Part shown: positions 9,645 through 61,395 of the stretch, piece after piece | Layout of the letters: each line of letters starts with the position of its first letter | How positions within the stretch are numbered: position 1 is the first letter of the stretch | Assembly (NCBI RefSeq): GCF_013122565.1 | Contig: NZ_CP053258.1 | Strand: one strand, 5' to 3' | DNA: 64,000 nt | DNA from: Escherichia coli | Lineage (GTDB): Bacteria > Pseudomonadota > Gammaproteobacteria > Enterobacterales > Enterobacteriaceae | Translations under genes and position numbers: made by a program | The notes under the pieces: generated by a model | Told to the model about the DNA's origin: nothing | What the model saw: only the letters and a program-made list of their open reading frames with translations | Databases searched by the model: none

Positions 9645-9676
9645 GCCGGATGCGGCGTAAACGCTGCATCCGGCAT
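9645..9676. repeat. REP-like palindromic unit between convergent hscC and djlC
   Basis: GCCGGATGCGGCGTAAACGCTGCATCCGGC with GCCGGATGC/GCATCCGGC arms. Confidence 0.6.
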
Positions 9677-57812: not shown

Positions 57813-58901
57813 ATGCCTCACAATCCTATCCGCGTGGTCGTCGGCCCGGCTAACTACTTTTCACATCCAGGAAGTTTCAATCACCTGCACGATTTTTTCA
57901 CTGATGAACAGCTTTCTCGCGCGGTGTGGATCTACGGCGAACGCGCCATTGCTGCGGCGCAAACCAAACTTCCGCCAGCGTTTGAACTGCCAGGGGCAAA
58001 GCATATTTTGTTTCGCGGTCATTGCAGCGAAAGCGATGTACAACAACTGGCGGCTGAGTCCGGTGACGATCGCAGCGTGGTGATTGGCATCGGCGGCGGC
58101 GCACTGCTCGACACCGCGAAAGCCCTCGCCCGCCGTCTCGGTCTGCCGTTTGTTGCCGTTCCGACGATCGCCGCCACCTGCGCCGCCTGGACACCGCTCT
58201 CCGTCTGGTATAACGATGCCGGACAGGCGCTGCATTATGAGATTTTCGACGACGCCAATTTTATGGTGCTGGTGGAGCCAGAGATTATCCTCAATGCGCC
58301 GCAACGATATCTGCTGGCGGGGATCGGTGACACGCTGGCGAAATGGTATGAAGCGGTGGTGCTGGCCCCGCAACCAGAAACGTTGCCGCTAACCGTGCGG
58401 CTAGGGATCAATAATGCGCTGGCTATTCGCGACGTCTTGTTAAACAGTAGCGAACAGGCGCTTGCCGATCAGCAAAATCACCAGTTAACGCAATCATTTT
58501 GCGATGTGGTGGATGCCATTATTGCTGGTGGTGGGATGGTTGGTGGTCTGGGCGATCGTTTTACGCGTGTGGCGGCAGCTCATGCCGTGCATAACGGTCT
58601 GACCGTGCTGCCGCAAACCGAGAAGTTTCTCCACGGCACCAAAGTCGCCTACGGAATTCTGGTGCAAAGCGCCTTGCTGGGTCAGGATGATGTGCTGGCG
58701 CAATTAACTGGAGCGTATCAGCGTTTTCATCTGCCGACTACGCTGGCGGAGCTGGAAGTGGATATCAATAATCAGGCGGAGATCGACAAAGTGATTGCCC
58801 ACACCTTGCGCCCGGTGGAATCCATTCATTACCTGCCGGTCACGCTGACACCGGATACGTTGCGTGCAGCGTTCGAAAAAGTGGAATCGTTTAAAGCCTG
58901 A
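57813..58901 (+). CDS. ybdH: Iron-type (glycerol-dehydrogenase-like) hydroxycarboxylate dehydrogenase YbdH, 362 aa
   Basis: GGGALLDTAK NAD-binding motif; family III ADH-like. Confidence 0.9.
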   Translation: MPHNPIRVVVGPANYFSHPGSFNHLHDFFTDEQLSRAVWIYGERAIAAAQTKLPPAFELPGAKHILFRGHCSESDVQQLAAESGDDRSVVIGIGGGALLDTAKALARRLGLPFVAVPTIAATCAAWTPLSVWYNDAGQALHYEIFDDANFMVLVEPEIILNAPQRYLLAGIGDTLAKWYEAVVLAPQPETLPLTVRLGINNALAIRDVLLNSSEQALADQQNHQLTQSFCDVVDAIIAGGGMVGGLGDRFTRVAAAHAVHNGLTVLPQTEKFLHGTKVAYGILVQSALLGQDDVLAQLTGAYQRFHLPTTLAELEVDINNQAEIDKVIAHTLRPVESIHYLPVTLTPDTLRAAFEKVESFKA

Positions 58902-58910
58902 CGTACACAT

Positions 58911-59108
58911 TTAGCAGCAGCGCGCGCCGCCTTTTCCACCGTAGCGCGCGTCCTGCCGCTCACGGAAAAACTCCTCGTAGGTCATCGGCGTCTGATCGGG
59001 ATGGTTAACCCGCATATGTTCGACATAGTTGTCGTAATCAGGCATACCAATCATCAGTTTCGCCGCCTGACCTAAATATTTTCCGGCTTTTGCCAGTGAA
59101 TCAAACAT
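58911..59108 (-). CDS. ybdD: DUF466 small protein YbdD (CstA partner), 65 aa
   Basis: ORF 58911..59108 downstream of cstA on same strand. Confidence 0.85.
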
Positions 59109-59141
59109 TAATACCTCCGGTAATCAGGTTGCCAGGAGAGT

Positions 59142-59175
59142 GCCGGATGCGGCGTGAACGCCTTATCCGGCCTAC
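59142..59175. repeat. REP palindromic unit in cstA-ybdD spacer
   Basis: GCCGGATGCGGCGTGAACGCCTTATCCGGCCTAC, canonical REP-like sequence. Confidence 0.7.
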
Positions 59176-59201
59176 AAATGCTATCAACGTGCTCGGTCAG
59201 T

Positions 59202-59246
59202 CCCCTCGCCCCACCGGGGAGAGGGTTAGGGTGAGGGGAAACCCTC
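59202..59246. repeat. G/C-rich palindromic repeat adjacent to REP
   Basis: CCCCTCGCCCCACCGGGGAGAGGGTTAGGGTGAGGGGAAACCCTC with internal inverted symmetry. Confidence 0.5.
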
Positions 59247-59289
59247 GGCGCCATGCCAACATTCGCCAACATTCCCCCTCACTCTGACT

Positions 59290-61395
59290 TTAGTGCGCGC
59301 CTTTTGCCTGCGCCACGATCTCCTCGACATTTTCCGGCATCGGCTCATACGGCGTTTCTTTCGCCGTTGGCTTCGGATCTTTCAATGCCGCAAGTGCCGT
59401 CTTAATCGAGAACAGTGCCAGAACCACCACGACCACCATAAAGAAGATGGTTAACCCGGCATCCAGACGGTTGTTGAACACCAGTTGCGCCAGCTGTGAC
59501 TCAGTATACTGCGACGGAATATTGCCGCTGTCGATCATTGCCTGGAACTTGTTAGCAATCGCCAGGAAGCCGACTTTCGCATCCGGGCTAAACGCTTTCT
59601 GCCAGCCTGCGGTCAGGGTACAAATCAGCAGCCAGGCCGTTGGTACCAGCGCCACCCAGGCGTAACGTTGACGTTTCATTTTGAACAGCACTACGGCACA
59701 GAGCATCAGCGCCATCCCTGCCAGCATCTGGTTGGCAATACCAAACAGCGGCCACAGAGTGTTAATACCGCCCAGCGGATCGACCACGCCCTGATGGAGG
59801 AAGTAGCCCCACGCCAGTACGCACAGCGCCGTTGCCAGCAGGTTAGCAGGCAGTGAATCGGTCCGTTTCAGACCCGGAGACACCACGCCCAGCAGATCCT
59901 GCAACATAAAGCGCGCAGCACGCGTACCTGCATCCACCGCCGTCAGAATAAACAGTGCTTCAAACAAAATGGCGAAGTGATACCAGAACGCCACATCCAT
60001 CATGCCGCCCAGCGCGCCGTGCAGAATGTAGGCCATCCCCACCGCCAGCGTCGGCGCACCGCCCGCACGGGAAATGATCGACTGTTCACCCACTTCGCTG
60101 GCAATCTGGTTTAGCGTATCCGGGGTAATCGCAAAGCCCCAGCTACTCACCACCTGCGCGGCAGAAGCGACCACATCCGCCGTCCCTGCCGGAGCCAGCA
60201 CCGCCATCGGGCTGTTCATGGCGAAGTACACACCCGGATCGATGATACAGGCGGAAACCAGCGCCATAATCGCTACGAAGGATTCCATCAACATCCCGCC
60301 GTAGCCGATAAAGCACGCCTGCCCTTCGTTCGCCAGCATCTTCGGCGTGGTGCCGGAAGAGATCAGCGCATGGAAGCCAGACACCGCGCCACAGGCGATG
60401 GTGATAAACAGGAACGGGAACAGGTTACCGGTCCATACCGGGCCAGTGCCATCGACAAATTTGGTCAGCGCAGGCATGGTCAGCGTCGGGCGCATAATCA
60501 AAATGCCTACCGCCAGACCGACGATAGTCCCGATTTTCAGGAAGGTAGAAAGGTAGTCACGCGGAGCCAGCAGCAACCACACCGGCAGCACCGCCGCCAC
60601 AAAACCGTAACCCACCAGCATCCAGGTCAGCTGCACGCCGGTAAAGTCAAAGTACGGTGCCCAGGTCGGGCTTTCTGCCACCCAGCCGCCAGAGATAATG
60701 GCGAAAATCAGGAATACCAGACCGATGACCGACACTTCACCAATACGCCCCGGACGCAGATAGCGCAGGTAGATCCCCATAAACAGCGCCAGCGGAATGG
60801 TGAACGCAACGGTATACGTTCCCCACGGGCTATGAGTCAGGGCTTTCACCACGATCATCGCCAGTACTGCAAGGATAATGACCATGATCATAAAGCAGGC
60901 CACCAGCGCTATCACCCCGGCGGTTGGCCCCATCTCTTCTTTGACCAGCTCACCCAGCGATCGACCGTCACGGCGCGTAGAAACAAACAGCACCATGAAA
61001 TCCTGCACCGCACCGGCGAGAACCACCCCGGCGAGCAGCCAGATCATCCCTGGCAGGTAACCCATTTGCGCCGCCAGTACCGGCCCAACCAACGGACCTG
61101 CTCCGGCAATGGCCGCAAAATGGTGACCGAACAGCACTTTCTTGTCCGTCGGCACATAGTCCAGCCCGTCGTTATGCCGCACCGCTGGCGTCATACGCGT
61201 CGGGTCAACCGCCAGCACATTTTTGGCGATATACAGACCATAAAAACGGTAAGCGATCAGATAGATACAGACCGACGCCACCACAATCCACAGTGCGTTG
61301 ATCTGTTCCCCACGATTTAAAGCAATGTATCCCAGAGCAAATGCTCCCATTACAGAGAGCACTGTCCAGACGAGGTATTTCCCTGATTTGTTCAT
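59290..61395 (-). CDS. cstA: Carbon-starvation / pyruvate-peptide transporter CstA, 701 aa
   Basis: Large polytopic membrane protein; recognised sequence. Confidence 0.9.
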   Translation of the reverse strand: MNKSGKYLVWTVLSVMGAFALGYIALNRGEQINALWIVVASVCIYLIAYRFYGLYIAKNVLAVDPTRMTPAVRHNDGLDYVPTDKKVLFGHHFAAIAGAGPLVGPVLAAQMGYLPGMIWLLAGVVLAGAVQDFMVLFVSTRRDGRSLGELVKEEMGPTAGVIALVACFMIMVIILAVLAMIVVKALTHSPWGTYTVAFTIPLALFMGIYLRYLRPGRIGEVSVIGLVFLIFAIISGGWVAESPTWAPYFDFTGVQLTWMLVGYGFVAAVLPVWLLLAPRDYLSTFLKIGTIVGLAVGILIMRPTLTMPALTKFVDGTGPVWTGNLFPFLFITIACGAVSGFHALISSGTTPKMLANEGQACFIGYGGMLMESFVAIMALVSACIIDPGVYFAMNSPMAVLAPAGTADVVASAAQVVSSWGFAITPDTLNQIASEVGEQSIISRAGGAPTLAVGMAYILHGALGGMMDVAFWYHFAILFEALFILTAVDAGTRAARFMLQDLLGVVSPGLKRTDSLPANLLATALCVLAWGYFLHQGVVDPLGGINTLWPLFGIANQMLAGMALMLCAVVLFKMKRQRYAWVALVPTAWLLICTLTAGWQKAFSPDAKVGFLAIANKFQAMIDSGNIPSQYTESQLAQLVFNNRLDAGLTIFFMVVVVVLALFSIKTALAALKDPKPTAKETPYEPMPENVEEIVAQAKGAH

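Follow-up and report, generated by a model that had tools for sequence, protein, structure and literature searches.

A single REP unit and a BoxC element lie beside an older hairpin in the cstA-ybdD spacer of Escherichia coli

Results

Gene setting of the cstA-ybdD spacer

The window is a stretch of 64,000 nt from Escherichia coli contig NZ_CP053258.1 (assembly GCF_013122565.1), and the closest of 5,426 complete E. coli genomes is 98.5% identical to it over 6 kb. Two genes on the minus strand are separated by a spacer of 181 nt (59109–59289). The upstream gene (59290–61395, minus strand) is a 701-residue open reading frame whose K-12 ortholog is annotated as cstA, the pyruvate/proton symporter, and its stop codon occupies 59290–59292. 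The downstream gene, called from its open reading frame and annotation, is ybdD (58911–59108, minus strand), which encodes a 65-residue protein of the YbdD/YjiX family. The ybdD Shine-Dalgarno sequence GGAGG was read from the sequence at 59114–59118 (minus strand), 5 nt before the ATG at 59106–59108, and its GGAG is kept in all of the E. coli alleles that were aligned. A hairpin upstream of ybdD that would sequester this site (59100–59141) was considered and rejected; its predicted fold is −6.1 kcal/mol with a z-score of 0.07, and K-12 has other bases at the paired positions. hcxA (ybdH; 57813–58901, plus strand) was also called from its open reading frame and annotation. It converges on ybdD across a 9 nt gap, and the ybdD-hcxA pair has been listed as a convergent excludon.

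A preliminary description of this DNA placed a composite of two repeats between cstA and ybdD, and both the placement and the gene calls are correct. The same description treated the two genes as an operon. This was an assumption, and RegulonDB, as used by Kaplan 2016 (PMC5100583), lists cstA and ybdD each as 1/1, that is, as separate units. Scans of 58850–59450 on both strands found no sigma-70-like promoter and no intrinsic terminator, sought as a GC stem-loop followed by a U run, so the composite does not qualify as a classical terminator or as an obvious promoter for ybdD. Co-transcription of cstA and ybdD is still plausible because no sigma-70-like promoter was found in the spacer and the spacers of some genera are only 14–20 nt long. 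A literature search outside the supplements of Dar and Sorek found no co-transcription or 3'-end data for cstA-ybdD. Constitutive pyruvate uptake is known to need YbdD together with CstA.

A single REP unit in the spacer

The ybdD-proximal element is a single REP (PU) unit, GCCGGATGCGGCGTGAACGCCTTATCCGGCCTAC, at 59142–59175. It was identified as an inverted repeat and by an exact pattern match, for which the expectation in shuffled sequence is 0.00. The two arms are 14 nt long and 86% complementary (59142–59171), and the head reads CTAC at 59172–59175 on the plus strand, which is GTAG on the minus strand. A GTAG tetranucleotide 5' of the REP palindrome is the feature recognized by RAYT. The unit is probably of the Y type in the Bachellier/Gilson classification. 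Its extragenic position between the cstA stop and the ybdD start, its GTAG head, and its 34 nt imperfect palindrome are those of REP/PU elements, although some E. coli lack the element at this site. The unit folds as RNA into a hairpin of −21.1 kcal/mol (z −4.5). It is the only PU in the spacer and a BIME consists of at least two alternating PUs with linkers, and a BIME assignment was rejected on this ground. The nearest other REP-like sequence in the window is at 9645–9674.

The REP unit is a dispersed repeat. All 5,425 E. coli genomes matched by a 41 nt query (5,427 records) have hits to it at 40 or more places per chromosome, and 41-mers that are 100% identical to it are present in many genomes. 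An Rfam scan of 58700–59600 with E values up to 10 gave one relevant match, naRNA4, a family derived from REP325; it falls on the REP unit below threshold (39.2 bits compared to a gathering score of 59.5), and the remaining matches are attributable to chance. The unit aligns base for base with K-12, where it occupies 632116–632149. Harris et al. 2026 (preprint) catalogue these coordinates in their supplement as REP55, class 'Tandem', cstA/ybdD; K-12 REP55 therefore occupies the orthologous position between the same two genes. The REP-like unit of the preliminary description is thus a canonical single REP, and the coordinates given for it were accurate.

A BoxC element next to the REP unit

The second element is a copy of BoxC, the repeat that is also called PIT, TMECO (here type A-mm), and HPG1. 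Holder 2015 (PMC4666352) equates TMECO with the BoxC of the 1990s and with the PIT elements of Hoyne and Maher. HPG1 in Kaplan 2016 is another name for, and structural reading of, the same repeat, and a function was not shown in that study. The core lies at 59203–59238, is G-rich on the plus strand, and has the structure CCCTCGCCC-CACCG-GGGAGAGGG-TTA-GGGTGAGGG-G. It matches the TMECO consensus CCCTCNCCC-N3-6-GGGNGAGGG-N3-GGGNGAGGG exactly, also with the terminal [GTC-]. The TTA second loop defines type A, and one mismatched triplet gives the suffix 'mm'. The segment GGGGAGAGGGTTAGGGTGAGGGG at 59216–59238 has an expectation of 0.00 in shuffled sequence. Ten independent K-12 copies have in common a 14 nt left flank (gYGCNCRRWCRGTC; here ...GYGCNCRRWCRGTC) and an A-run on the right. 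These shared flanks show that the element in the window is longer than its core and spans approximately 59189–59241. The REP unit is 13 nt away from the element and 27 nt away from the core. The preliminary description was right that a G/C-rich element follows the REP, and its spacing of about 25 nt is replaced by these two values.

Within the element, four G tracts with the loops AGA, TTA, and TGA (GGGG-AGA-GGG-TTA-GGG-TGA-GGGG) follow a C block, CCCCTCGCCCC, at 59202–59212. The G blocks are direct repeats of one another, and their inverted partner is the C block. Internal inverted symmetry had been attributed to the element on the basis of two quoted G blocks; the symmetry is real, but it is provided by the C block and not by that pair. 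On the cstA/ybdD mRNA the element reads as C-rich. The strand that carries the G tracts is the template of cstA and ybdD, which makes a G4 or a purine triplex impossible in the mRNA, and any G4 at BoxC would have to be in DNA or in antisense RNA.

BoxC is also dispersed, and the window copy, like the family, is intergenic. Genome searches with a 59 nt query located a median of 19 places per genome, so the second element is not unique; this was the check that the preliminary description had proposed for it. In 5,407 of 5,426 genomes at least one match spans 80% or more of the query. No known RNA family in the Rfam scan (58700–59600, E up to 10) covers BoxC.

This particular copy has been recorded before. 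Table S8 of Holder 2015 lists the identical 36-mer at this locus in LF82 (604718–604683) and in NRG 857C (600518–600483), positions that coincide with matches in our BoxC genome search, and its entry for O157 Sakai is a CATC-loop variant that corresponds to the O157 spacer allele. Kaplan 2016 lists the K-12 ortholog as HPGQ no. 19, group HPG1, on the opposite strand from the two genes; its midpoint is 632058, with distances of 51 nt to cstA and 108 nt to ybdD. The third block of the K-12 ortholog is degenerate (GGGTGAGAG) and fails the TMECO pattern, which explains why K-12 is missing this locus in Table 1 of Holder 2015. The window copy differs by one loop base from K-12 TMECO no. 23. Its first loop is CACCG compared to TTTG, TCTG, or TCCG in K-12 copies of BoxC, and loop 1 is the only difference from the family members that were tested in vitro. 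The second element and its presence at this locus are therefore already known, as HPGQ no. 19 and in the TMECO Table S8, as is the REP unit as REP55.

The structures and activities of the family have been studied elsewhere. TMECO family members form an intrastrand purine-motif triplex in vitro, as judged by CD and NMR (Holder 2015), and both G4 and triplex formation have been shown in vitro for members of the BoxC/HPG1 family. In vivo DMS footprinting gave no support for a stable triplex, and earlier tests of PIT elements detected neither promoter nor terminator activity, nor any effect on RNA polymerase (both summarized by Holder 2015). Holder 2015 also ties TMECO loci to intergenic variability.

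A third hairpin and the folding of the spacer

A third stem-loop, hairpin 1, lies at 59229–59288 (minus strand) with arms GUGAGGGGGAAU and GUUUCCCCUCAC, and was identified as an inverted repeat and by RNA folding. It adjoins the cstA stop codon. Its 3' arm is the terminal BoxC block (59229–59240), the partner arm, TTCCCCCTCAC, lies at 59272–59283, and its loop contains a small inner hairpin. The terminal block of the window copy is also recruited into this adjoining hairpin, which sets it apart from the described BoxC/PIT/TMECO elements. Hairpin 1 is the older feature; it is Escherichia-wide and occurs in E. albertii, E. whittamii, and other Escherichia in spacers that lack BoxC. Its fold is −30.8 kcal/mol (z −3.8). 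A tandem duplication of GCCAACATTC (two copies, 59255–59274) is located in the loop and is polymorphic; the unit is single in the 172 nt APEC allele and the 127 nt 32A22 allele, and it is mostly absent from NE88. Hairpin 1 was missed in the preliminary description. The composite extends to 59288, and the whole 181 nt spacer is occupied by three stem-loops.

The isolated 53 nt BoxC segment folds at −24.4 kcal/mol using its outer C block. In the fold of the full spacer, unlike the isolated fold, the outer C block pairs within hairpin 1. The whole spacer folds at −84.7 kcal/mol (z −3.1) on the minus strand, which corresponds to the mRNA, and gives three consecutive hairpins: hairpin 1, an inner BoxC hairpin, and REP. 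An equivalent fold of −78.2 kcal/mol (z −3.95) is predicted for the plus strand.

A C-rich tract on the opposite strand

The plus strand contains a C-rich, G-poor tract at 59243–59346, which is antisense to the 3' end of cstA and has 43 C and 19 G in 104 nt (C/G 2.3). The tract lies directly downstream of BoxC in plus-strand RNA, and the order is REP, BoxC, tract. A tract with more C than G was not found in the sense mRNA. The C-rich tract was matched, by coordinate arithmetic from the K-12 alignment, to an in vitro Rho-binding peak in K-12 (631943–632047, strand '−') that lies 69–74 bp from REP55 and carries no flag for bicyclomycin sensitivity (Harris et al. 2026 preprint). Dar and Sorek described Rho-dependent 3' ends that closely follow stable stem-loops and are themselves followed at once by rut sites. 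hcxA has no terminator in the 549 nt past its stop codon, so RNA reading through from hcxA would meet the REP unit, then BoxC, and then the C-rich tract.

Spacer alleles within E. coli

A 590 nt query comprising ybdD, the spacer, and the 3' end of cstA was used to sort genomes by coverage class, and one example of each class was aligned. Spacers of 182, 181, 172, 153, 143, 127, and 112 nt were found, and all four presence/absence combinations of the two repeats are seen among them. The 181–182 nt spacers (window, K-12, and O157) contain BoxC and REP, as does the 172 nt spacer of APEC, which has one 10-mer fewer. The 153 and 143 nt spacers (MS14387 and 1532WA, respectively) contain BoxC only, and the 127 nt spacer (32A22) contains REP only. 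The 112 nt spacer (NE88) contains neither repeat and has another small hairpin, GCCCTCTTAATTCAGGAGGGC, that resembles the one in Citrobacter and Salmonella. Sampling of 40 evenly spaced records of 5,469 gave both repeats in ~68%, BoxC only in ~8%, REP only in ~2–3%, and neither in ~20%. These shares agree with the 1,195 of 5,425 genomes in which the 590 nt query gave less than 80% coverage. A count of 2,725 genomes obtained with a 181 nt query is unreliable for BoxC + REP alleles because divergence near ybdD drops the coverage to the cut-off of about 80%.

In six RefSeq alleles, cstA is annotated as an intact coding sequence and the YbdD protein accession is identical. Alleles without one or both repeats thus keep intact cstA and ybdD, which shows that REP and BoxC are dispensable here. 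They are not a required device at cstA-ybdD. Several small indels separate the filled from the empty alleles, and comparison of the two revealed no clean BoxC insertion footprint or target-site duplication.

Spacers in other Enterobacteriaceae

A scan for YbdD with one genome per species yielded 80 loci, and the cstA-ybdD spacer was extracted from 76 of them. Most of these spacers are 53–63 nt long with a single GC hairpin right after the cstA stop. A two-block CCCTC...GAGGG hairpin is present in 19 species (Citrobacter and Salmonella), and REP-like hairpins of three sequence types occur in ~17 species. One or two full TMECO elements are found in this spacer in 11 of the 76 species, and the genera concerned include Enterobacter, Lelliottia, Leclercia, Pluralibacter, Phytobacter, Cedecea, and Pseudocitrobacter. 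All of the strict TMECOs (17/17) in the 246 kb that were fetched are inside the cstA-ybdD spacer, a control that is weak because most of the remaining fetched sequence is coding. Hairpin 1 and REP occur without BoxC in E. albertii, E. whittamii, Escherichia sp. MOD1, and the E. coli species representative. The identity of the hairpin at cstA-ybdD therefore varies both between and within genera.

Folding of the 74 spacers that reach 40 nt (the window and 73 other species) gave a median z-score of −3.3, and 85% of the values are below −2. A stem-loop is not obligatory, since three species have hairpin-free spacers of 14–20 nt. In K-12, the 49 nt spacer of the paralogous btsT-yjiX pair contains GCCCCGC-ttcg-GCGGGGC followed by a T-run, TTTGTTCTT. 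These data identify the cstA-ybdD spacer as a turnover hot-spot for GC-rich hairpins. A stem-loop is usually present, its identity is free to change, and it is often supplied by dispersed palindromic repeats.

Discussion

The feature in the spacer is almost certainly two independent, already catalogued, dispersed noncoding repeats, REP and BoxC, beside an older hairpin. The best explanation of the whole, which we consider very probable, combines this identity with an effect of the stem-loops on the RNA that crosses the spacer. We infer that the repeats have no sequence-specific role at this site; the effect would come from three stable stem-loops in any RNA that traverses them. In the sense direction, the stem-loops would block 3'-to-5' exonucleases on a cstA-ybdD transcript. 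They may also mildly dampen read-through and so favor cstA over ybdD mRNA, and they would do so without acting as an intrinsic terminator. In the antisense direction, the stem-loops and the C-rich Rho-binding tract beyond BoxC would constitute the layout of a Rho-dependent end for RNA reading through from hcxA.

The closest precedent is REP325, which likewise lies between tandem genes (yjdM-yjdN) and lacks a poly-U tail. REP325 stabilizes the mRNA of yjdM, the upstream gene, and attenuates yjdN, the downstream one, partly through Rho (Harris et al. 2026 preprint). Tandem gene pairs with a REP between them are upstream-biased in expression, with a median log ratio of 0.96 compared to −0.09 in controls. 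REP effects depend on context, and mRNA half-lives are not generally lengthened by REPs. REP325 consists of 12 PUs compared to one PU and one BoxC at cstA-ybdD, and REP325 fragments of 2–4 hairpins have no detectable Rho dependence (Harris et al. 2026 preprint). This last result, the lack of a C>G tract in the sense mRNA, and the inactivity of PIT elements in promoter and terminator tests speak against a strong effect in the sense direction. A role as an mRNA stabilizer or attenuator, which the preliminary description proposed for the composite, is a reasonable analogy for the REP unit, and the interpretation given in that description is partly supported overall. We put a measurable RNA-level effect of the stem-loop kind at slightly under an even chance.

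Several other readings of the spacer were weighed against the combination of catalogued repeats and a stem-loop effect. The proposal of the preliminary description, taken to its full extent, makes REP and BoxC a selected, dedicated intercistronic regulator, a stabilizer or attenuator that sets the CstA:YbdD ratio in a two-gene operon. The stable hairpin in ~85% of the 74 spacers analyzed, the terminator-like hairpin of the paralogous btsT-yjiX spacer, the joint action of CstA and YbdD, the lack of a promoter-like site in the spacer, and the upstream-biased expression of REP tandem pairs are all consistent with such a device. We nevertheless consider it quite unlikely. The four presence/absence combinations occur with intact genes, ~20% of genomes have neither repeat, the third block of K-12 BoxC is degenerate, and PIT elements are without terminator activity. 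Hairpin identity also changes between and within genera, which means that at most 'a hairpin' is under selection and not the REP and BoxC composite. A very different proposal is that the elements act in the DNA only, with a BoxC triplex, G4, or hairpin promoting indels, the REP unit persisting as a selfish RAYT-mobilized sequence, and no consequence for RNA. The link between TMECO loci and intergenic variability (Holder 2015), the at least seven spacer length alleles in one species with heavy turnover across genera, and the G4 and triplex structures formed in vitro by family members point this way. The proposal is doubtful, since DMS footprinting in vivo did not support a stable triplex, the variability fits relaxed constraint equally well, and the hairpins are inevitable in any transcript that crosses them.

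The spacer may instead serve the other strand, where the REP and BoxC stem-loops with the Rho tract would end hcxA read-through, protecting the hcxA 3' end and shielding cstA. hcxA stops 9 nt short of ybdD, no intrinsic terminator was found up to 59450, the ybdD-hcxA pair is a reported convergent excludon, and the plus-strand order of REP, BoxC, and a tract with a C/G of 2.3 resembles the layout of Rho-dependent 3' ends. The strand also has the in vitro Rho-binding peak of K-12 and the predicted RNA fold of −78.2 kcal/mol (z −3.95). Set against these points are the purely in vitro nature of the peak, which is not flagged as bicyclomycin-sensitive, and the existence of alleles without REP or BoxC, and we judge the other-strand role unlikely. 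It is compatible with, and not exclusive of, the explanation by catalogued repeats and a stem-loop effect. A small protein was also considered. The window contains a 54-codon open reading frame at 59108–59272 (minus strand) whose final TAATG overlaps the ybdD start codon, a stop-start arrangement that would couple its translation to that of ybdD. The frame runs straight through BoxC and REP. K-12, O157, and APEC do not share its stop, frame, or start, it is absent from the shorter alleles, and the TAATG overlap is specific to the window allele. The small-protein reading was rejected on this lack of conservation among alleles and is extremely improbable.

Both repeats and this very copy are already in the literature, and the finding carries little weight as a discovery. 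The modest value of the locus is experimental. Spacers of 181, 153/143, 127, and 112 nt form a natural allelic series with both repeats, BoxC only, REP only, and neither, between the same flanking genes. CstA and YbdD have an easily scored joint phenotype in pyruvate uptake and 3-fluoropyruvate sensitivity. These properties make the spacer convenient for testing the RNA-level function of BoxC and the effect of a single REP on a tandem gene pair.

A wider interpretation is that the spacer is a modular, bidirectional hairpin cassette, made up of the old hairpin, BoxC, and REP and with the Rho-binding tract on its antisense strand, that insulates the convergent cstA-ybdD and hcxA units, and that its alleles tune the CstA:YbdD ratio and the ybdD-hcxA overlap. 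We offer this as a speculation with a low probability of being correct. If it is true, the TMECO/BoxC elements in 11 of the 76 spacers would point to insertion or gene conversion at pre-existing CCCTC...GAGGG hairpins, and BoxC, a repeat known since the 1990s, would gain a first demonstrated role, as a stem-loop that protects RNA 3' ends.

Allelic variation in the cstA-ybdD spacer

The loop of hairpin 1, the older hairpin of the cstA-ybdD spacer, carries a 10-nt tandem duplication (GCCAACATTC x 2, window 59255–59274), and the copy number of this unit is strain-variable in E. coli. Two copies are found in the window, K-12, and O157, a single copy is found in E. coli APEC 102026 and 32A22CPO009, and the unit is mostly missing from E. 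coli NE88. The NE88 allele has a 112-nt spacer (219–330 of the fetched locus L002) that lacks both REP and BoxC but retains a short hairpin, GCCCTCTTAATTCAGGAGGGC, with ATTTGTA after it. The hairpin of Citrobacter and Salmonella is similar, GCCCTCTCC...GGAGGGC followed by GTTTGTA, and the likeness between the two sequences suggests that NE88 preserves the ancestral form of the half of the spacer nearer to ybdD.

A 54-codon ORF on the minus strand (window 59108–59272) crosses BoxC and REP, and its terminal TAATG overlaps the start codon of ybdD. A coding reading was rejected; frame, stop, and start are not kept in other alleles, and the ORF is therefore most likely a chance ORF within GC-rich repeats.

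Convergent hcxA and an antisense C-rich tract

The stop codons of the convergent genes hcxA (plus strand) and ybdD (minus strand) are just 9 nt apart (window 58902–58910; gene pair 57813–59108), and no terminator-like site was found near this convergence. ExcludonFinder classes the pair as a convergent excludon (PMC12288877). A C-rich, G-poor plus-strand tract (window 59243–59346; 43 C and 19 G in 104 nt) lies antisense to the cstA 3' end. It is the counterpart of an in vitro Rho-binding peak on the antisense strand of K-12 (631943–632047).

Recurrence of stem-loops and BoxC

The K-12 btsT-yjiX genes are a transporter/small-protein pair paralogous to cstA-ybdD. Their 49-nt spacer (581–629 of L098) holds a hairpin that resembles a terminator, GCCCCGC-ttcg-GCGGGGC with TTTGTTCTT after it; thus, an intercistronic stem-loop seems to be a trait common to CstA-family/YbdD-family gene pairs.

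One or two full TMECO/BoxC elements, frequently an inverted pair, occupy the cstA-ybdD spacer in 11 of 76 other Enterobacteriaceae species (L018, L021, L038, L041, L047, L060, L064, L067, L068, L073, and L074; spacer at about 1350–1500 in each). Near relatives of these species have a REP-like or plain CCCTC...GAGGG hairpin there. This recurrence may mean that the spacer is a hot-spot, that the elements are targeted to hairpins already present, or that they were inherited from a common ancestor. YbdD is 98% identical to the E. coli protein in L012 (Streptomyces sp. DH24, 465-bp contig) and 89% identical in L038 (a MAG labelled Bacillota). Both records have Enterobacter-like flanks, and contamination or mis-binning of the public assemblies almost certainly accounts for them.

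The sole further REP-like palindrome within the 64-kb window is GCCGGATGCGGCGTAAACGCTGCATCCGGC (9645–9674). Other K-12 copies of BoxC, in the pstB-pstA spacer (L094) and downstream of phnP (L095), likewise occupy spacers within operons or at operon ends, and these two would be helpful comparison loci for functional tests.
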